Shown here: piece after piece, positions 9,712 to 37,000 of the stretch
Layout: each line of letters starts with the position of its first letter
Numbering within the stretch: position 1 is the first letter of the stretch
Sequence record: MN510331.1
Direction: 5' to 3' (one strand)
Length of the DNA: 39,704 bases
Origin: Escherichia phage vB_EcoP_PR_Kaz2018
Translations under genes and position numbers: made by a program
The notes under the pieces: generated by a model
Databases searched by the model: none
The model's input: the letters and a program-made list of their open reading frames with translations, nothing else
What the model was told of the DNA's origin: nothing

Positions 9712-10178
9712 GCAAGCAGTTTAAACTGTTAAGTGCTGAGTGTGGCTGGCCTTGTGGGACTATCGTTACCCAGTGTGAGAAGGACCCCCAGCCAGCGATA
9801 GGAATGATTCTAGTTGAGTGCCAGACTCCAGGCACCTACAAACACGGGTCTAAAGGCCACAATACGCAACCTGAGGGAATGTGGGGAGCGTGGGTCTGTA
9901 CTGAACGCCTTGAAGAAATCAAGACAGAAGAGAAACACCAAGTCCTGCCAACTTCGAGCGTACCTCCTGTGACTGTGAAGCGTGAAGTCCTGACCATTGA
10001 TAAAATCCCGGTAGGCTATGCGTTTATCGTCCACGGTAAGCCGGGTGAAGTGTACGTGAAGATTAGTAACTCTCACGTCTTCAACCATAAGTTACTCCAG
10101 ATGCACACCACCGGATGCACACCGCTTCCAACGTCATCTGAACCTCGTAGCTGTAGAGCTGGTGGTGTACAATGGTGA
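9708..10178 (+). CDS. Hypothetical Cys-rich protein (156 aa)
   Basis: ORF track; strong RBS AAAGGAG; start overlaps the gene 3 stop (ATGA); no counterpart in T7 as I recall. Confidence 0.7.
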   Translation: MSKQFKLLSAECGWPCGTIVTQCEKDPQPAIGMILVECQTPGTYKHGSKGHNTQPEGMWGAWVCTERLEEIKTEEKHQVLPTSSVPPVTVKREVLTIDKIPVGYAFIVHGKPGEVYVKISNSHVFNHKLLQMHTTGCTPLPTSSEPRSCRAGGVQW

Positions 10179-10630
10179 GTAAGGTGCAATTCAACCCACG
10201 GTCCCGGACTGACGCTATCTTCGTTCACTGTTCGGCTACCAAGCCAGAGATGGACATCGGGGTAGAGACCATCCGTATGTGGCACAAGCAGCAAGGCTGG
10301 CTGGATGTAGGCTACCACTTTATCATCAAGCGTGACGGTACTGTGGAAGATGGTCGCCCGGTAAATGTCGTAGGGTCACACGTTAAGGATTGGAACTCCC
10401 GGTCAGTAGGCGTCTGCCTTGTAGGTGGAATTGACGCTAAGGGTCAGTTTGAAGCTAACTTCACTCCAGCCCAGATGAACTCCCTGCGCAACAAGCTGGC
10501 TGACCTGAAGGTCCTGTATCCTCAGGCAGAAATCAAAGCACACCATGACGTAGCACCTAAGGCGTGTCCAAGTTTTGACTTGCAACGCTGGCTGTCTACC
10601 AATGAACTGGTCACTTCCGACCGTGGTTAA
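10172..10630 (+). CDS. 3.5: Lysozyme (N-acetylmuramoyl-L-alanine amidase; T7 RNAP inhibitor family)
   Basis: DAIFVHCSATKP, WLDVGYHFIIKRDGTVE, GVCLVGGID, HHDVAPKACPSFD, NELVTSDRG match T7 gp3.5. Confidence 0.95.
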   Translation: MVSKVQFNPRSRTDAIFVHCSATKPEMDIGVETIRMWHKQQGWLDVGYHFIIKRDGTVEDGRPVNVVGSHVKDWNSRSVGVCLVGGIDAKGQFEANFTPAQMNSLRNKLADLKVLYPQAEIKAHHDVAPKACPSFDLQRWLSTNELVTSDRG

Positions 10631-12920: not shown

Positions 12921-14936
12921 ATGTTTGACCTTAAGAGTATCTGGGGTTCTGACATCGAGACCAACGGTCTCCTTGATACAGTCTCCCAGTTTCACTGTGG
13001 GGTCCTGATTAACGCCGAGTCGAATGAGACCCTTAAGTATGGGGTAGCTCCGATGGTCGGTATCGTCGGCGGCTTCAAAGAGTATGTTCATAAAGTGGAA
13101 GAGATTGCCGCATCACCTGATGGTATGCTGGTATTCCATAACGGTATCAACTATGACGTCCCGTCTATAGACAAGCTGAAGCGTTTGTACTTTGGGAAAC
13201 GCTTTAACTTCCCGAAACATAAGATGATTGATACCTTGGTGCTGGGACGCTTGATGTATCCAAACATTAAGTTCTCAGACATGGGCGCGGTGAAAGCTGG
13301 TCGTCTGCCACCTAAGATGATGGGACGCCAGTCTCTTGAGGCTTGGGGCTATCGTCTCGGTGAGATGAAAGGTGAGTACAAACACGATTACGTTGCCAAG
13401 TGCAAGGCTGAAGGTATCGAATATAAGGCTGGGGACGAATGGTTGTTCCCGTCTCAGGAGATGCTGGACTATAACGTTCAAGACGTTGTGGTCACACTGG
13501 CGTTGTTCAAGAAGTTCCTGACTGACAAGTATTACTTCCAGTCTGAACAGTTCGCTTTCGACCAGATTTATGCGTTGCGTCTGGAACATGATGCTGCGTG
13601 GACCTGTGCGAAGATGGAGCGTAACGGCTATCCGATGAACACCGAGATGGTCGAAGGCTTATATCGTGAACTCACTGTCAAACGTGCAGAGTTGCTGGAC
13701 AAGCTGCGTTCGACTTTCGGTAGCTGGTACGCACCAAAGGGAGGCAAGGAGTTCTTCAGGCATCCACGGACAGGTAAGGACCTTCCGAAGTATCCGAGGG
13801 TCGTGTATCCTAAGGTCGGTGGCATCTTTAAGAAGCCGAAGAACAAAGCTCAACGCTTATGTCTTGAACCTTGTGAACGCGATACGCGAGACACGATGGA
13901 AGGAGCACCATTCACGCCAATCACTTACGTTGAGTTTAATCCGGGAAGCGGAGACCACTTAGCGAAAGTCCTGATGGAGCGTGGCTGGGAGCCTGTTGAC
14001 TTCACTGACACCGGGAAACCTGTAGTCGATGACGAGACGTTGGAACACGTTAAGTTACCAGACGCAGAGGCTCAGGCTTGCGTAGAGCTGGTCCGTGAGT
14101 ATCTGGTAGTCCAGAAGCGCATCGGACAGGCTGCTGAAGGTAAGAACGCATGGTTGAAACTTGTAGGTCCAGACGGACGTATGCACGGTTCAATCAACCC
14201 TTGTGGAGCAGTAACCGGACGTGCGACCCATAGTTCACCAAACATGGCTCAGGTCCCGGCTAACGGTGCTCCGTATGGTGAGACTTGCCGTGGTGCTTTC
14301 GGTGCAGCGTGGAACAAGAAGGATGGCAAGCCAGACCCTTGGATTCAAGTAGGTGTGGATGCTTCAGGTCTTGAGCTTCGTTGTCTGGGGAACCGTGCGT
14401 CTCCGTTCGATGGTGGCGAATACGCGAAGACTGTGGTCGAAGGTGACATCCACTGGGCCAATGCGGTCAACGCAGGGTTAGCACCTAACGTCCCACGCGA
14501 TAAGTCTAACCACGACCATGAGGCTTTCCGCAACAACGCCAAGACGTTCATCTATGCGTTCCTGTATGGTGCAGGGGCCGCTAAGATTGGACTGATAGTT
14601 GGCGGTGGTAAGAAGGAAGGTTCAGCTCTCATGAAGAAATTCATTGAGGGTACACCAGCCATCAAGGACCTCAGGGAAGCTGTGAGTAATACGTTAATAT
14701 CAGACTCTAAGTGGGTGGACGGAGAGAACATCGTCAAGTGGAAACGCCGTTGGCTGCGTGGACTTGATGGTCGTCGTATCCACATCCGGTCCCCGCACTC
14801 AGCACTTAACGCCCTACTTCAGGGTGACGGTGCGGTGGTCTGTAAGCACTGGATAGTCGAGACCGAGCGTATGCTTGAAGAAGCTGGCTATGTCCACGGC
14901 TGGGAAGGTGACTTTGCGTACATGGCTTGGGTTCAT
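12921..14936 (+). CDS. 5: DNA polymerase, exon 1 (672 codons)
   Basis: Colinear with T7 gp5 from the 3'-5' exonuclease domain to ...GDFAYMAWVH; the ORF then hits TAA where T7 continues DEIQ... Confidence 0.95.
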
Positions 14937-15534
14937 TAACATCATGGTGCACATTAAATCTGGTGAACTCGGTGAACTCCTAATGGGACAATACCGAGCC
15001 AAGCCATAGGGAGGATGTATGAGAGGCAAGAAGTTAATTCTTGAGGCCACTGAGACTGGCTGCATAATCCCTACGTCACATAAATTGAATCAGGATGGAT
15101 ACTTCCGAAAGAGGACTAACGGTGTCCTTGAGATGTATCATAGAACTGTATGGATTAAAGCTAATGGTCCAATACCTGAAGGTTTCGAAGTAGACCACAA
15201 GTGTCGTAATAGAGCTTGTTGCAACGTCGAACATCTACAAGTATTAGACCGTGACTCACACTTAGTCAAGACCAACCAAGAGCGATACGCTGCTAGGAAG
15301 CTAGAAGCACGAGACTACTGGGTAGAGACTGGGTGTACAGGAACGAAGTTAGCCGAAGTATTCAATGTGTCGTTCTCAGCCGCCTGTGGGTGGATTAGAG
15401 AGTGGAAGGCGTAGAGACTATCCGAAAGGAGTAGGGCCGTGGGTGAGATTCCCACGTAACCCGAAGCGCCAGACAGTCACCTCAAAGACTGATGATATAG
15501 TCCGACACTTCCAGTAATGGGAGAATACAGAAAG
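14937..15534 (+). mobile_element. Group I intron in the DNA polymerase gene, containing an HNH endonuclease ORF
   Basis: 5' exon ends in U (14936) and intron ends in G (15534); candidate guide sequence GUGAAC (14963..14968 or 14972..14977) pairs with exon GUUCAU with a U-G wobble; flanking exons rejoin in frame. Confidence 0.8.
15019..15414 (+). CDS. HNH homing endonuclease encoded within the intron
   Basis: Motif EVDHKCRNRACCNVEHLQVLDRDSH is a His-Asn-His metal-finger signature; RBS GGGAGG upstream. Confidence 0.85.
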   Translation: MRGKKLILEATETGCIIPTSHKLNQDGYFRKRTNGVLEMYHRTVWIKANGPIPEGFEVDHKCRNRACCNVEHLQVLDRDSHLVKTNQERYAARKLEARDYWVETGCTGTKLAEVFNVSFSAACGWIREWKA

Positions 15535-15690
15535 GATGAGCTGCAAATTGCGTGTCGTACTCAGGAGATTGCCGAAGAAGTCGTCAAGATTGCTCAACTT
15601 GCTATGCGTAAGGTGGGCGAGTTCTATAACTTTAAATGCGTCCTTGACACCGAAGGGAAGATTGGACCAACGTGGAAGGAGTGCCACTAA
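15535..15690 (+). CDS. 5: DNA polymerase, exon 2 (51 codons plus stop)
   Basis: Hand-translated DELQIACRTQEIAEEVVKIAQLAMRKVGEFYNFKCVLDTEGKIGPTWKECH matches the remembered T7 gp5 C-terminus. Confidence 0.85.
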   Translation, partial: DELQIACRTQEIAEEVVKIAQLAMRKVGEFYNFKCVLDTEGKIGPTWKECH

Positions 15691-26426: not shown

Positions 26427-28709
26427 ATGGCTAGTAATATTGAATCAGCTCTGGCTAATCGTACTATGGGTCGTGGCAGAGCGCCGGGTAAAGCTATCGC
26501 CGTAAACTATCAAGCAGCCAGCGTTCAGGCTCCGACTGGGGACTCCGGTCTGGCTCGTGCGTTAACCAACTTCGTTGAGTCCGGGACTGGATTGTACAAG
26601 CAGTTCAAGGACGAGGAGAAGACACGGGCCGACGAGCGGTCTAACGAGATTATCCGTAAGCTGACACCTCAGCAAAGACGTGAGGCTATCCAGAACGGTA
26701 CACTGCTGTATCAGGACGACCCTTACGCTATGGAAGCACTTCGAGTCAAGACAGGTCGTAACGCTGCCTTTGCGGTGGATGACGAGATTAACGTTAAGAT
26801 TCAGAACGGTGAGTTCCGTACACGTCAGGACATGGAAGAGTATCGCCACCAGCGACTTCAGGACGCCGCTAAGTCCTATGCTGAAGAGGCTGGTATCAAC
26901 CCTACCGACGAGTTCTTCCAGCGTGGGTTCAACGATAACATCACAGACCGCAACATCGCTATCTATGGGTCTTTCAATAAGTATTTCAGCAAGCAGTCTG
27001 AAGAGACAGCAATGTTGAACACCCGTATTGAGATGAACTCATTCCTGAACGATGGCGACCTGATGCGTGCACCTGAGTCTGGCAAGACATTCATGGCCTA
27101 CCTTCGTGACGGACTGACTACTGCTGCTATCCCCTCGGACCAGCGAGCGCGGGAGGTCATTACCCAGACGGTCCGTGACGCAATCCAGAAGTCAGGCGGC
27201 TCAAACTTCCTACAGCAAGTACGAGGCGAGCGAATCACCCTTAACGGCGTGGATGCTACAGTCGAAGAGATTGTAGGACCTGATGTCTTCAACGCTGCTA
27301 TTGTTGAGGCACAAGGAACTGAGTACAAGCTGGTGGCTAAGTATCAGGAAGACTTAGCGTTAGGCGTTCAGTCTGCGATTCTTCAGGACGACCCAACCAT
27401 CGGTCTTGCCCAGATTCAGAAACTCAAGGAGCAGAACAACCTGCTTCAACCGGGTGAAGAACTCACACCTCAGCGTCAGATGCTTATTAATGCCGAAGCC
27501 AGCTTACTGGAAGCGGTAAAGCGTAAGTCTGCTGAACAGGCGAAGGAGAACACGAAGTTAATCCAGACCCAGAACAAGCAACTGGTCATTGACCAAGTTT
27601 ATCAGCGACGTCTGGCTGGAGACAACGTGTCCACCAGCTATGAGGACCTTCCGGTCTCTGAAGCTACAGGAGAGTTCAAGCGTTCAGACATGAACAACTA
27701 TGCGTCTGCTAAGCTACAGCAGATTGACCAGATGGACATCCCTGAGGCTTCTAGGGACGCCCAGAAGGTTGCATTGTTAAGGGCTGACACTAACAACGGT
27801 CCGTTCCGTAATGCCTTCCAGACTCTTACTCAGGACGCTGCTGGTGAGTGGCAGGCTGCGGTCATCCGTGGACAGTACGACCCAGACAAGATGCAACGCT
27901 TCGAGTCTCTTCGTCGTGCCTACACTCAGGACCCTTCAAGTTTTGCTGCTCTGTATCCTGACCAAGCTCAGTTGTTCTCTACGTTCGACCAGATGGACAA
28001 GATGGGTCTGGACCCTCAGACGATGATTGAAGCTGATAAGCAAGCTGCAAGTCAAAGCCGTGAGATGCGCATTGAGTCAGACAAGGCGTGGCAGGAGTTG
28101 AAGAACGACTCTCGGAATAAGGACCTTTCGCGTCTTCCTACGTCTCTGGACGCAAGTGCTCGTAAGGTCTGGGACTCATGGTACTATCGTACAGGTAACG
28201 CTGACGCTGCAACTCAGCAGACTCAACGCTGGCTGAATGAGAACACCGTAACGTTCCAGTCTGAAGGTTCTGATGGTAAGTCAATCGGCATGGTGTCCAA
28301 GCACCAGCTTATGGTCGGGGATAACCCAGAGTCGTGGCAGGTTGGTCGAGACATTATCGACACCGCTCGTAAGCAGCTCATTAAGGCCAACCCTTGGGTA
28401 GTGAACTCTCAGTTGTCCGTTGTTGAACAGAACGGCTCTATCTTCCTCCAAGACGCTACAGGGACTATTCGTATTCGCTACGATAAAGAACTTGTAGGTA
28501 AACTCTACCGCGAACAACAGCAGAAGGCACAAGATGCCGCATACGCTCAGGCAGAACGTGACGCTAACAAGCGAGCGCGTATCGTCGGGACTAAAGCTGC
28601 TGGTGACAAACGTCGAGCTGACCGAGAGGCCAACATCGAGAAGCGCGGTGGGATGTACAATGACGTCTCACTGGAGGGTATCGCAAACGTACTAATTGGT
28701 AAGGAGTAA
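26427..28709 (+). CDS. 15: Internal virion protein B
   Basis: Size (760 aa), position and helical charged composition agree with T7 gp15. Confidence 0.92.
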   Translation: MASNIESALANRTMGRGRAPGKAIAVNYQAASVQAPTGDSGLARALTNFVESGTGLYKQFKDEEKTRADERSNEIIRKLTPQQRREAIQNGTLLYQDDPYAMEALRVKTGRNAAFAVDDEINVKIQNGEFRTRQDMEEYRHQRLQDAAKSYAEEAGINPTDEFFQRGFNDNITDRNIAIYGSFNKYFSKQSEETAMLNTRIEMNSFLNDGDLMRAPESGKTFMAYLRDGLTTAAIPSDQRAREVITQTVRDAIQKSGGSNFLQQVRGERITLNGVDATVEEIVGPDVFNAAIVEAQGTEYKLVAKYQEDLALGVQSAILQDDPTIGLAQIQKLKEQNNLLQPGEELTPQRQMLINAEASLLEAVKRKSAEQAKENTKLIQTQNKQLVIDQVYQRRLAGDNVSTSYEDLPVSEATGEFKRSDMNNYASAKLQQIDQMDIPEASRDAQKVALLRADTNNGPFRNAFQTLTQDAAGEWQAAVIRGQYDPDKMQRFESLRRAYTQDPSSFAALYPDQAQLFSTFDQMDKMGLDPQTMIEADKQAASQSREMRIESDKAWQELKNDSRNKDLSRLPTSLDASARKVWDSWYYRTGNADAATQQTQRWLNENTVTFQSEGSDGKSIGMVSKHQLMVGDNPESWQVGRDIIDTARKQLIKANPWVVNSQLSVVEQNGSIFLQDATGTIRIRYDKELVGKLYREQQQKAQDAAYAQAERDANKRARIVGTKAAGDKRRADREANIEKRGGMYNDVSLEGIANVLIGKE

Positions 28710-28713
28710 CATA

Positions 28714-31700
28714 ATGGCGACTCGTGGTATTCGCAATAACAATCCGGGTAACATCCGGGTAAGTAAGGACCAATGGGAAGGAATGACTGGAGATGATGGC
28801 GCATTCGTCACCTTCGATAGTCCAGAGTCTGGCGTCCGAGCTTTAGGTAAAAACCTGCTGTCCTACGGTCGCCAAGGTTATGACTCCATCGAGAAGATTA
28901 TCAACCGATGGGCACCTCCTAACGAGAACGAAACTAAGGCTTATATCGACTCAGTGGTGGCTGCAACTGGTATTCCAGCTACCCAGAGTCTCGACCTATC
29001 GGACCCTGACACCCTGTCTTCTCTGGCTCAAGCTATCAGCTTCCATGAGACAGGCTCCCGGTACGACCCTGAAGTCTATCAGAAGGGAGTCGCGCGAGCA
29101 CTCAATGGCATTAGCCCAAAGACTCCACCAGTAAGCGCTAACGTATTTGACGCACTCACGGAAGGACTCAAGGCTAAACCTAAAGTAGCTCTGGGCGAGA
29201 ACCTTCCGACCGCTGCTGGTCTAAACATTGAGGGTCAAGCACCTGAAGCTGCCAACGAATCGTTCGGTGAGATGTTCTATAAGTCTACTGGCGAGACCAT
29301 GCAGGAACGAGAGGATCGCTCTACGTGGTTCGGTTTCGGCTCGGCTACAGAAGCTGAAGTGAAGAACTCTATGGTCGGCGTGGCTATCCGCGCTGGTCAG
29401 ACCGAGGACTCACTTGATGTCATTGGCGATGTGTTCAACCCTGCCCGCTGGAACAACCATAAGTGGTCTCGTGAGGAGCTGGACCAGATTCGTAACGCTG
29501 GAGTTCTCCCTCAGTATTACGGTGTCATTACTGGTGGCTCTCCTCAGAACCTGACCGAGCTTATTAACTTGGCGCTTGAGAACCAGAAGTTGGACCAAGA
29601 GAAGGCCAAGGCTGGGACTGGTGCTCAGCTAGCGGCTGGTGTGATTGGTGCTGGTGTAGACCCACTGACCTACGTTCCTATCGCTGGACAGGTTGGCAAA
29701 GGTGCGAAGCTGGTCAACAAGATGTTCACCGTGGCTGCTCAATCTGGAGCACTTGCTGGTGTATCAGAGATGGCCCGTACCTCAGTGGCTGGTGGGGATG
29801 CTCATGTGGCTGAAGCTATCCTTGGTGGTGCTCTCTTTGGTGGTGGTATGACTGCCATCGCTGATGGGTTAGGCAGAGCCTTAGGCAAGTCCACTAATGA
29901 GTTTGCTGGCCCAGCTACACGTCTGGAAGCTCGTGAGACCGCTCGTAACGTTGATGGTCAGGACCTGTCTCGTCTTCCTATTCAGGAAGGTGAGCAGACC
30001 TTTAGTCATCAAGGCGTTAAGTTCGCTGACGTTCCTAATGAGCCGGGAAGTGTACGATTAGAAGATGGTTCAATCCTGATTGGTGAGAACCCTCTGAACC
30101 CTAAGACACGTCAAGTCTTCGACGAAGTGATTGAGCCAGAACGTGCCGCTGCTGGTGTGAACCTTGGTGGACTTACCGAGATTGGTCTGAAGCTGCTTCG
30201 GTCTGAGAACCCTGAGATTCGTGGAGTAGCTGCTGACTTAGTACGTTCACCGACTGGTATGCAGTCTGGGGCCTCAGGTAAAATAGGGACAACTGCGTCA
30301 GACGTGTTCGAGAGGCTTCGTGCTGTGGACCATCGGTTCTACAACGACATCGACGATGCGGTTACTGAGGCACTAAAGGACCCGTACTTCCAGACAGCAT
30401 TCTGGCGAGACTCTGGAGCATTCCGTCAGGACATCTACCAGCGCGTGTCTATGGCTATCGAAGATGGCAGCGGAAACCTGAAGGCTGAACTGACTCCGGG
30501 AGAACTTAAAGTCTATGACCTACTGAAGAACCAGTTTGACGCCAAGCGTGAGATGATGGAGAACCCAGCTATGTTTGGTCGGTCAGACGCTCAGTCTATC
30601 TTTCCGGGTAGCCGCTTCAAGGGAACCTACGTCCCTCATGTGTATAGCAAACAGATGAAGGAGCTGTACACCAAGGAGCTTGGGAGTCCAGAGGCGTTGC
30701 AGGAGGCCATCAAGAAGTCATGGTTGACCAGCTATGCGTCTCGACCTGAAGTCAAGAAACGCGTGGACGAGGCACTCTTAGAGTCTGACCCTACGTTGAC
30801 TCCAGAAGGACTTGCGGCTGCGGTCGATAAGTACGCCAACGATAAGGCTTACGGTATCTCCCACACCGAGCAGTTCGAACGTTCATCCGTAATGGAAGAG
30901 AATATCAACGGTCTGGTTGGTCTGGAGAACAACAGCTTCCTTGAGGCTCGTAACCTGTTCGATAGCGATATGTCAATCGTCCTACCTAGTGGTCAGACCT
31001 TCAGTGTCAACAACCTGCGTGAGTGGGACATGGACAAGATTGTCCCGGCATACAACCGTCGAGTTAATGGTGACATTGCTATTATGGCTGGTACAGGCAA
31101 GACAACGAAAGAAATGAAGGACTTGGTTGAGACCATGATGAACAAGGCTGGGGATGACGGTAAGTTGAAAGGTGAAGTATCTACCTTACGTGACACCTTG
31201 AAGATTCTAACTGGTCGTGCTCGACGTGATGGTGCTGATGATGCGGCCTTCGCTACCGTGATGCGCACAATGACAGACCTATCGTTCTTCGCCAAGAATG
31301 CCTACATGGGTGTTCAGAACTTAACGGAGATTGGTGGTATGCTGGCCCGTGGTAACGTTCGTGCAATGCTGCATGGAGTCCCAATTTTCAGTGACCTAGC
31401 CTTCCGTAACAAGAAAGTTGGGGCCTCAGAGATTAAGGACCTGCACAATGTTATCTTTGGTAAGGAGCTGGATGACTCAATCCGTCCGTCTAAACAGGAT
31501 GTCATTGACCGTCTGCGATCTTACAGTGACCTCGGTCGTGGTGCAGCTACAGCTCTGGGGACTGCCAAGTATTACACTGGCGAACTTGCAGTACGCTCTC
31601 CGTTCACTAAAGTCCTCAACGGTACGACCAACTACCTGTTAGATGCTGGACGTCAAGGCTTCCTGTCTGACATCGTGGAGCATAGCCTGACTGGTAGTAA

Positions 31701-32601
31701 GCGTAAGTTCGATGACCGCTGGCTGAAGACCGCTGGTATCTCTGACGAGCAGTGGAAGGGAATTAAGTCCCTCATCCGTGAATCAGTGACTCGTGGTCCA
31801 GACGGGAAGTATACCATCAAGGATAAGAAGGCGTTCAGTCAGGACCCAAGGGCTATGGACCTGTGGCGTATGGGTGATACCATCGCTGACGAAACGTTAC
31901 TCCGGCCCCACAAGCTGTCCAACATGGACGCCAAGGCTTATGGTCCTCTCGCTAAGACTGTCCTTCAGTTTAAGAACTTCGTCATCAAGTCCATCAATGG
32001 ACGTACCATGCGAACCTTCTATAACGCCACGAAGAACAACCGAGCGATGGACGCTGCTCTATCCACTGTGATCTCTATGGGTCTTGCTGGTATCTACTAC
32101 ATGGCTCAGGCGCACGTCAAGGCTTACGCTATGCAGGATGGTAGAGACCGTGATTACCTCAAGCAAGCTCTTGACCCGACGATGATTGGGTATGCGGCTC
32201 TGTCCCGTAGTTCACATCTGGGCGGTCCACTTGGGGTAGCTAACATTCTGGGTGGCATCGCTGGGTATGAGGACACTAAGATGCTCCGTTCGTCTATCCT
32301 ACCTCGTTCGCCTACAGAGAAGCCTGAACGTGCCATCGCGTATGGTGCAGCTACAAGTGACCCTGTGATGAATGTTGTTGGTAACTTCTTGGAGCAGGTT
32401 CCAGCTTTCGGATATGCTGCTAACGTTGGCGCTTCGGCTTACAACTTGGCTGGCTACCTCAAGGCTGATACTCGTGTCAACGAGCGTGACTACATGACCG
32501 GGATGTATAATACGTTCCGTGAACTGGTTCCGAACGACCCAATTACCCAGAAGCTGTTGCTTGGAACGTTTGAGGAGCAAGGTATCCACATCAAGGACTA
32601 A
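28714..32601 (+). CDS. 16: Internal virion protein C (ejection protein); N-terminal domain unlike the T7 transglycosylase
   Basis: From ~residue 250 colinear with T7 gp16 (ARWNNHKW, LRSPTGMQSGASGK, ENNSFLEARNLFDSD, YNRRVNGDIAIM, LSRSS.LG); start at ATG 28714 (AAGGAG 7 nt upstream) rather than track 28696. Confidence 0.95.
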   Translation: MATRGIRNNNPGNIRVSKDQWEGMTGDDGAFVTFDSPESGVRALGKNLLSYGRQGYDSIEKIINRWAPPNENETKAYIDSVVAATGIPATQSLDLSDPDTLSSLAQAISFHETGSRYDPEVYQKGVARALNGISPKTPPVSANVFDALTEGLKAKPKVALGENLPTAAGLNIEGQAPEAANESFGEMFYKSTGETMQEREDRSTWFGFGSATEAEVKNSMVGVAIRAGQTEDSLDVIGDVFNPARWNNHKWSREELDQIRNAGVLPQYYGVITGGSPQNLTELINLALENQKLDQEKAKAGTGAQLAAGVIGAGVDPLTYVPIAGQVGKGAKLVNKMFTVAAQSGALAGVSEMARTSVAGGDAHVAEAILGGALFGGGMTAIADGLGRALGKSTNEFAGPATRLEARETARNVDGQDLSRLPIQEGEQTFSHQGVKFADVPNEPGSVRLEDGSILIGENPLNPKTRQVFDEVIEPERAAAGVNLGGLTEIGLKLLRSENPEIRGVAADLVRSPTGMQSGASGKIGTTASDVFERLRAVDHRFYNDIDDAVTEALKDPYFQTAFWRDSGAFRQDIYQRVSMAIEDGSGNLKAELTPGELKVYDLLKNQFDAKREMMENPAMFGRSDAQSIFPGSRFKGTYVPHVYSKQMKELYTKELGSPEALQEAIKKSWLTSYASRPEVKKRVDEALLESDPTLTPEGLAAAVDKYANDKAYGISHTEQFERSSVMEENINGLVGLENNSFLEARNLFDSDMSIVLPSGQTFSVNNLREWDMDKIVPAYNRRVNGDIAIMAGTGKTTKEMKDLVETMMNKAGDDGKLKGEVSTLRDTLKILTGRARRDGADDAAFATVMRTMTDLSFFAKNAYMGVQNLTEIGGMLARGNVRAMLHGVPIFSDLAFRNKKVGASEIKDLHNVIFGKELDDSIRPSKQDVIDRLRSYSDLGRGAATALGTAKYYTGELAVRSPFTKVLNGTTNYLLDAGRQGFLSDIVEHSLTGSKRKFDDRWLKTAGISDEQWKGIKSLIRESVTRGPDGKYTIKDKKAFSQDPRAMDLWRMGDTIADETLLRPHKLSNMDAKAYGPLAKTVLQFKNFVIKSINGRTMRTFYNATKNNRAMDAALSTVISMGLAGIYYMAQAHVKAYAMQDGRDRDYLKQALDPTMIGYAALSRSSHLGGPLGVANILGGIAGYEDTKMLRSSILPRSPTEKPERAIAYGAATSDPVMNVVGNFLEQVPAFGYAANVGASAYNLAGYLKADTRVNERDYMTGMYNTFRELVPNDPITQKLLLGTFEEQGIHIKD

Positions 32602-35993: not shown

Positions 35994-36188
35994 ATGATTG
36001 AGTTAGACTTCAAGAATGAGGTCCTTAAAGCCTCTCCTATCGTCGGGACCGCTGCGGCTGATGGTGCCAGTCGGTTCTTCTTCGGACTTACACTGAACGA
36101 ATGGTTCTATGTTGCAGCTATCGCGTACACCGTTGTCCAGATTGGTGTGCTAGTCTACAAAACGATTAAAGGAGGTGGTAAAACATGA
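35994..36188 (+). CDS. 17.5: Holin (class II)
   Basis: MIELDFKNEVLKASPIVGT...FFGLTLNEWFYVAAIAYTVVQIG matches T7 gp17.5. Confidence 0.85.
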   Translation: MIELDFKNEVLKASPIVGTAAADGASRFFFGLTLNEWFYVAAIAYTVVQIGVLVYKTIKGGGKT

Positions 36189-36550: not shown

Positions 36551-37000
36551 ATGCTCGAATTTTTAAAGAGAGCGGCTCCGTGGTTACTTGCAGCAGTGAT
36601 GTTTGCTGGTGGCTACCACACCGCTAACAATAAGTGGGAGGCTAAGGTCAATGAAGAATACACCTCTAATCTTAAGGCATCGGAAGATACAAGGCTTGCT
36701 GTCCAAGCTGAAGTCAACAAAGTGTCCAAACGGTTTCAGGACGAAATGTCCTCGCTGGAAGGCAGCACTGATAGGATTATTGCTGACCTTCAGTCTGACA
36801 ATAAGCGGCTGCGCATCCGAGTCAAGCCAACGAGTGGAACCACGCAAAGTGACGGTCGATGCGTCATTGATGGTTACGCCGAACTTGACGAACGAGATGC
36901 TAAACGTCTTATCGCCATCGGAGTGAAAGGAGACAAGTGGATTAAGGCCCTTCAGGACACTGTGAGAGCCTTGCAGCAAGATAAGGAGGTGACGCATTGA
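36551..37000 (+). CDS. 18.5: Rz-like i-spanin
   Basis: [21 protein letters not shown] (N-terminal TM), [30 protein letters not shown] match T7 gp18.5. Confidence 0.9.
36651..36926 (+). CDS. 18.7: Rz1-like o-spanin lipoprotein, embedded in the +1 frame of Rz
   Basis: [25 protein letters not shown] (lipobox) and [14 protein letters not shown] match T7 gp18.7; ATG 36651 with GGGAGG 9 nt upstream. Confidence 0.8.
   Translation: MKNTPLILRHRKIQGLLSKLKSTKCPNGFRTKCPRWKAALIGLLLTFSLTISGCASESSQRVEPRKVTVDASLMVTPNLTNEMLNVLSPSE

Follow-up and report, generated by a model that had tools for sequence, protein, structure and literature searches.

Gene 16 of Escherichia phage vB_EcoP_PR_Kaz2018 (MN510331.1) encodes internal virion protein D, a component of the ejectosome (28714..32601, plus strand; 1295 aa in the open reading frame (ORF) list; PHROG 342 at E=0). 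The window analyzed here is the whole phage sequence of 39,704 bases, a Kayfunavirus genome with the length and gene coordinates of phage K1F (NC_007456/DQ111067) and ∼95% nucleotide identity to it. We found that the N terminus of the gene 16 product, gp16, is a genuine module swap for the soluble lytic transglycosylase (SLT) domain of T7 gp16. Judged by sequence, predicted fold, and the conserved residues Trp66, Tyr77, and Glu112, residues ∼3–131 are an Enc34-type (PHA02564) muralytic domain (28720..29106, plus strand; boundaries from an AlphaFold model and the sequence match to PDB entry 7Q47). This domain is very probably an active muralytic entry enzyme, in the same position as the T7 SLT domain and most likely with the same job, a reading that draws on sequence, modelling, and analogy with characterized relatives.

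A BLASTP comparison with T7 gp16 (NC_001604, 1318 aa) returned one collinear alignment, which paired residues 125–1295 with T7 residues 152–1315 at 629 identities in 1182 positions (53%); nothing in residues 1–124 aligned with T7 residues 1–151. The chains of T7 gp16 in PDB (7eyb, 7k5c, 9jyy, and 6yt5) matched residues 125–1294 only. In a positive control, T7 gp16 residues 15–127 matched the Pfam SLT family PF01464 at 5e-31, and a search of Pfam and NCBIfam gave no family for residues 1–200 or for the whole of gp16, even at E<=1. Because residues 1–124 were unaligned and SLT was found only in the T7 control, we concluded that the N-terminal module has been replaced. An earlier note on this DNA, made from its letters, had proposed just such a non-T7 domain in place of the lytic transglycosylase, and these comparisons bear it out. 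The N-terminal peptide quoted there is the true translation of gp16, and the interval it gave, 28714–29130, covers the folded domain of the AlphaFold model. Its claim that collinearity with T7 gp16 begins at about residue 250 put the boundary too far downstream: collinearity was weak from about residue 125, through a linker, and unambiguous from about residues 185–200. The T7-collinear body, residues 125–1295, occupies 29086..32598 on the plus strand. The linker between the putative lytic module and this body is rich in proline and alanine (residues ∼132–199; 29107..29310, plus strand), with a predicted local distance difference test score (pLDDT) below 50 after residue 133 and low identity to T7 residues 152–220. 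A strongly conserved T7-like block starts after it, around RSTWFGFG.

Since Pfam and NCBIfam were empty for this region, the family of the N-terminal domain was identified through a PDB sequence search and PHROGs. With residues 1–200 as the query, phmmer against PDB sequences gave two meaningful matches, chain L of 9vvp and 7q47_A, the latter being the catalytic domain of the Hafnia phage Enc34 endolysin (E=7e-15 over residues 3–122). A profile of 45 homologues (alignment A1) matched 7q47_A at 1.5e-42, and among PDB chains it matched no T7 gp16 chain at E<=1. The same 130 residues occur in PHROG families labelled endolysin, head protein, tape measure protein, and tail injection transglycosylase. 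The AlphaFold model of the domain, built on the homologue alignment, had a pLDDT of 87.4 and a predicted template modelling score of 0.82, and its fold ends at about residue 131. The modelled domain is compact and mostly helical, with a beta-hairpin (residues 24–34) and five helices (residues 37–53, 59–66, 74–85, 98–113, and 119–130). It superposes on 7Q47, which was its sole Foldseek match in PDB (E=5e-9; template modelling score 0.80). Structure comparison, as suggested in the earlier note, places 7Q47 nearest and the folds of GH73 glucosaminidases next. The Pfam Glucosaminidase family PF01832 gave weak matches in 6 of the 45 family members (best E=0.008, below the gathering score) and no match for the phage's own gp16.

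The family-defining N-terminal motif, RGIRNNNPGNIR, spans residues 4–15 (28723..28758, plus strand); it was seen in the 45-homologue alignment and occurs also in Enc34 ORF39 and Minipunavirus gp16. Within it, residues R7, N8, N10, G12, N13, I14, and R15 of the RNNNPGNIR motif were invariant across A1. The HMMER alignment to 7q47 equates three further residues, all encoded on the plus strand, with positions of the Enc34 enzyme: Trp66 (28909..28911) with Trp79, a substrate-positioning aromatic; Tyr77 (28942..28944) with Tyr95; and Glu112 of the sequence HETG (29047..29049) with the catalytic Glu131 of HENG. The Enc34 paper (PMC8943055) names Glu131 as catalytic and describes Trp79 and Tyr95 as conserved, catalytically important aromatics. 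Tyr77 and Glu112 were invariant in alignments A1 and A3, and Trp66 was at least 90% conserved in A1, with Tyr in its place in the Minipunavirus phage phiA020 and in homologue P0022. Of the roles that the earlier note had offered for the replacement, the Enc34/PHA02564 match and the retention of the putative catalytic Glu, Tyr, and Trp favor that of a different muralytic module.

The activities of two relatives suggest what the domain does. In turbidity assays, Enc34 ORF39deltaC lyses E. coli, P. aeruginosa, and H. alvei cells whose outer membrane has been permeabilised (PMC8943055). M4LysdeltaTMD, from the M4Lys protein of Salmonella phage BSPM4, degrades purified peptidoglycan and frees N-acetylglucosamine from muropeptides, as followed by high-performance liquid chromatography and mass spectrometry, which is the behavior of an N-acetylglucosaminidase (PMC7143992). 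A complete lysis set of the T7 type is encoded in the window separately from gp16. It comprises the gene 3.5 amidase, the phage's own endolysin (10172..10630, plus strand; Pfam Amidase_2 at 9.9e-16; K1F annotation), a holin of the T7 family (35994–36188; Pfam T7 holin at 2.1e-22), and an Rz-like spanin (36551–37000; Pfam Rz at 7e-5). Because the phage has this set of its own, the gp16 domain is not needed for lysis; its most likely task, like that of the T7 SLT domain, is to open the wall while the genome is being ejected.

T7 gp14, gp15, and gp16 are ejected partly unfolded and then refold in the envelope as the ejectosome. By the mechanism that we propose, gp16 would likewise leave through the tail partly unfolded, and its small, mostly helical N-terminal domain would refold in the periplasm. 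There it would hydrolyse nearby glycan strands, Glu112 serving as general acid, and this local cut would let the gp15/gp16 channel cross the murein layer. The chemistry would probably be that of a hydrolytic glucosaminidase rather than of a lytic transglycosylase, and the activity probably matters most with a heavily cross-linked wall, as in T7. We lean slightly toward the domain being a glucosaminidase specifically.

Several points weigh against taking the domain as an active entry enzyme. Muralytic activity has been shown only for the relatives Enc34 ORF39deltaC and M4LysdeltaTMD. Entry 9vvp was not among the Foldseek matches of the model, and either the domain is unmodelled there or the entry lies outside that library. 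Moak and Molineux reportedly found in 2000 that the T7 SLT activity is dispensable under standard conditions, and the same may hold for the gp16 domain. The available passages of the Enc34 paper assign Glu131 as catalytic by superposition and contain no mutagenesis, and the crystallography described in them yielded no substrate complex (PMC8943055). Bond specificity is also unsettled, since the M4Lys data suggest an endopeptidase as well and one figure legend says muramidase (PMC7143992).

We also weighed whether the domain might still be a lytic transglycosylase, reached by extreme divergence from SLT or by convergence, as the GenBank label “peptidoglycan lytic exotransglycosylase” would have it. 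The SLT-type gp16 N termini were represented by an alignment (A2) of eight phages, namely T7, one representative each of Teetrevirus, Elunavirus, Helsettvirus, Ghunavirus, Wuhanvirus, and Cronosvirus, and a Melnykvirinae phage that is unclassified. Compared by hhalign, the A1 family and A2 aligned over a single helix of 23 columns at a probability of 0.9%, and none of the 45 Enc34-type family members matched Pfam SLT PF01464. The sole aligned segment paired the helix SPESGVRALGKNLLSYGRQ, gp16 residues 36–57 (28819–28884), with NPELAINAAAKQLAGLVGK, T7 gp16 residues 78–100; a single-helix alignment would be expected if, as the Enc34 paper proposes, the fold is a permuted lysozyme core, but at this probability it is not significant. 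The catalytic Glu37 of the T7 SLT domain (“ES” motif) lies at the domain start and is invariant in A2, whereas Glu112 of gp16 lies near the domain end. This difference fits the circular permutation described for Enc34, whose fold is argued to be related to the GH23/GH73 lysozyme-like alpha-lobe very distantly and through a circular permutation (PMC8943055). SLT and Enc34-type domains may share ancestry at the superfamily level, very remotely, within the lysozyme superfamily. The earlier note had held that a diverged SLT domain with its catalytic Glu conserved would overturn its proposal; the missing Pfam SLT match, the hhalign result, and the position of the Glu at residue 112 all speak against such a domain, and we regard a lytic transglycosylase as improbable.

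Another explanation accepts the Enc34-type identity and denies the activity: the domain would be a catalytically dead wall-binding or anchoring module that tethers the ejectosome to murein without cutting it. The Enc34 crystals bound no sugar ligand, and the known activities come from relatives rather than from gp16 copies of the domain, both of which would suit a dead module. A binding-only derivative, however, would be expected to lose the Glu, and Glu112, Tyr77, Trp66, and the RNNNPGNIR motif are kept at 36–57% identity to free-standing homologues and, at ∼41–44% identity, in gp16 proteins from another genus too, so we consider this explanation very unlikely. The domain might instead act late as an auxiliary endolysin, given that the family founders Enc34 ORF39 and M4Lys are endolysins, or serve some purpose away from the wall, for instance in assembling the core within the capsid, given that the T7 gp16 N-terminal domain belongs to the internal core. 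We hold either role to be extremely improbable, because the genome already encodes its amidase, holin, and spanin, gp16 is without a signal sequence or transmembrane element to export the newly made protein, and unrelated phages also carry the domain on proteins that are ejected or belong to the virion. An enzyme that opens the wall at entry is the reading that we retain.

The distribution of the domain bears on its history. Using it as the query, we obtained 883 clusters in a homologue search and, in an exhaustive HMMER search, 11,733 representatives at 50% identity with E<=1e-3 (5,499 at E<=1e-10). Although the Enc34-type family is very large, Pfam and NCBIfam hold no model for it. Many “virion proteins” of 500–1300 aa bear the domain, and most named members of the family are labelled merely “structural protein” or “virion protein.” By tblastn, the domain was found in 735 phage records, about 190 of them at an identity of at least 80%; among the matches listed, the records at this identity were 38–41-kb Kayfunavirus-like genomes in which the match lay within gp16. 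The T7-type SLT module was found in 1223 records. The Enc34-type domain is standard in the gp16 of Kayfunavirus and of Minipunavirus, and both N-domain types coexist within Studiervirinae.

The gp16 of Minipunavirus phiA020 has an Enc34-type N terminus and is collinear with gp16 of the window from residue 3, at 49% identity overall. The arrangement is therefore old, and a recent, independent capture by Kayfunavirus is rejected on the strength of this collinearity. Metagenomic gp16-like proteins P0205 and P0238 have the same architecture. Profiles of GC content and skew across 27.5–31 kb revealed no compositional break at the N-terminal domain (GC 0.49–0.53, against 0.50–0.56 nearby) and thus no sign of its recent acquisition. 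Homologues of the domain include NO16 GP11, which has been detected in virions, and the PM2 gene V product. The metagenomic protein P0124 (1259 aa) bears two copies of the domain together with a Pfam crAss_CARG1 cargo-protein domain, and crAss-like phages also seem, from such sequences, to eject an Enc34-type enzyme. Tandem copies were present in metagenomic P0122 (762 aa) and P0132 (1337 aa) as well as in P0124; in P0122, phmmer matched five stretches and the comparison with PHROG 873 four.

A wider proposal, to which we give somewhat less than an even chance, is that Kayfunavirus and Minipunavirus ejectosomes breach the wall by a hydrolytic N-acetylglucosaminidase, possibly plus an M4Lys-like endopeptidase, and not by a lytic transglycosylase. 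If this were true, it would be the first T7-like gp16 with a different bond chemistry, and Studiervirinae would have maintained since ancient times two types of gp16 N-terminal domain that are not equivalent in function and are perhaps adapted to the state of the host wall. The Enc34-type family would then serve mainly as ejected virion cargo and less as endolysin.

The family, its fold, and its muralytic activity are already published (2020–2022). In the searchable literature, the K1F genome paper excepted, we found no paper linking K1F-type gp16 to an Enc34-type domain, and a literature search on the 9vvp structure found no paper describing it. Seven GenBank records of Kayfunavirus gp16 name the product “peptidoglycan transglycosylase” or “lytic exotransglycosylase,” yet these proteins are without an SLT domain. 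The transglycosylase label appears to have been carried over from T7 via the conserved gp16 body. The present analysis corrects this widespread annotation, in which many K1F-like gp16 proteins bear lytic (exo)transglycosylase labels that are inconsistent and often wrong. It also offers a concrete case of module exchange at the N terminus of a T7-type ejectosome protein, in which the GH23 SLT and Enc34-type modules could be swapped experimentally, and it would give phage entry a share in a fold that was recently characterised in endolysins. Internal capsid proteins are the route by which K1F is being engineered for therapy and diagnostics, and such work would benefit from the prediction that the gp16 N terminus is an enzyme of ∼130 residues that folds on its own, with a flexible linker behind it. 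No new class of mechanism is opened; the swap is genuine but unsurprising, and its use lies at the level of annotation.

The start of gene 16 is the ATG at 28714–28716, and the stop codon is at 32599–32601. The TAA of gene 15 (28707–28709) lies just before this ATG, and the Shine-Dalgarno sequence AAGGAG (28701..28706, plus strand) falls 7 nt 5′ of it, within the last codons of gene 15. If translation began instead at an in-frame TTG (28696), gene 16 would gain six codons and overlap the end of gene 15. The ATG at 28714 is likely the start and is preferred over this TTG because of the AAGGAG sequence 7 nt upstream and because it puts the beginning of the family motif at residue 4, where homologues have it. 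Three other ORFs in this region, 28547–28804 and 28591–28773 on the minus strand and 28880–29134 in another plus-strand frame, were set aside as frames that arise mechanically where coding is strongly supported.

The coordinates of gene 16 are identical to those of K1F gene 16.0. The gene sits between gene 15 and the tail-fibre gene, so that the order gp14-gp15-gp16-gp17 is kept, and together with this synteny the PHROG 342 match and the collinear body mark gp16 as a T7-like internal virion protein D. Chain L of 9vvp (“Gp29”) is a near-identical protein of 1295 aa, of which the entry holds four chains. Mass spectrometry of virions of SH3, a close relative of K1F, detected an internal virion protein D of 1295 aa (PMC4925675). 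By analogy with SH3 and the 9vvp chains, gp16 of K1F-like phages is taken to be a virion protein.

Relative to K1F, the window has ∼5% substitutions, mostly at third codon positions, and no indel in the stretches compared (1–25000 and 28600–29400); a substitution-only divergence of this size is unusual for a natural isolate. The K1F annotation assembles the DNA polymerase gene from two segments that flank an HNH homing-endonuclease ORF (15019–15414), and by shared coordinates the counterpart of this gene in the window would lie at about 12921–15690. The HNH region of the K1F polymerase gene has been described as a putative group I intron, which SH3 lacks (PMC4925675).

Among known systems, the closest relatives of the gp16 domain are Enc34 ORF39 (PDB 7Q47; NCBI CDD PHA02564, “V virion protein”) and M4Lys. 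These are endolysins of ∼230–260 aa with a C-terminal two-helix membrane domain, whereas here the domain forms the N terminus of a 1295-aa ejected internal virion protein; it is also shorter, without the Enc34 loop insertions at 59–69 and 85–89. Its inferred role is wall penetration at entry, in contrast to the lysis at exit of Enc34 and M4Lys. The GH73 enzymes (FlgJ, TM0633, and Ecd09610; PF01832) differ in that the Enc34 fold, according to its paper, has the catalytic helix circularly permuted and the beta-lobe missing (PMC8943055).

The likeness to T7 gp16 (PDB 7EYB, 7K5C, and 6YT5) lies in the position of the gene, in a body of 1170 residues that is 53% identical, in the order of N-terminal muralytic module and linker, and in a presumably identical role in the ejectosome. 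The modules themselves are unrelated at the sequence and profile level, SLT/GH23 with Glu37 in T7 and Enc34-type with Glu112 here, and the likely chemistry is that of a non-hydrolytic lytic transglycosylase in T7 and of a hydrolytic glycosidase, probably an N-acetylglucosaminidase, in the window. A muralytic module on an ejected or virion-internal protein is a feature shared with SP6 gp36, K1-5 gp38, phiKMV gp36, NO16 GP11, and the PM2 gene V product, although the carrier proteins and virion architectures are others. The SP6 and phiKMV modules have classical lysozyme folds, and the exchange of lysin modules among podovirus internal virion proteins is well known (PMC5380687).

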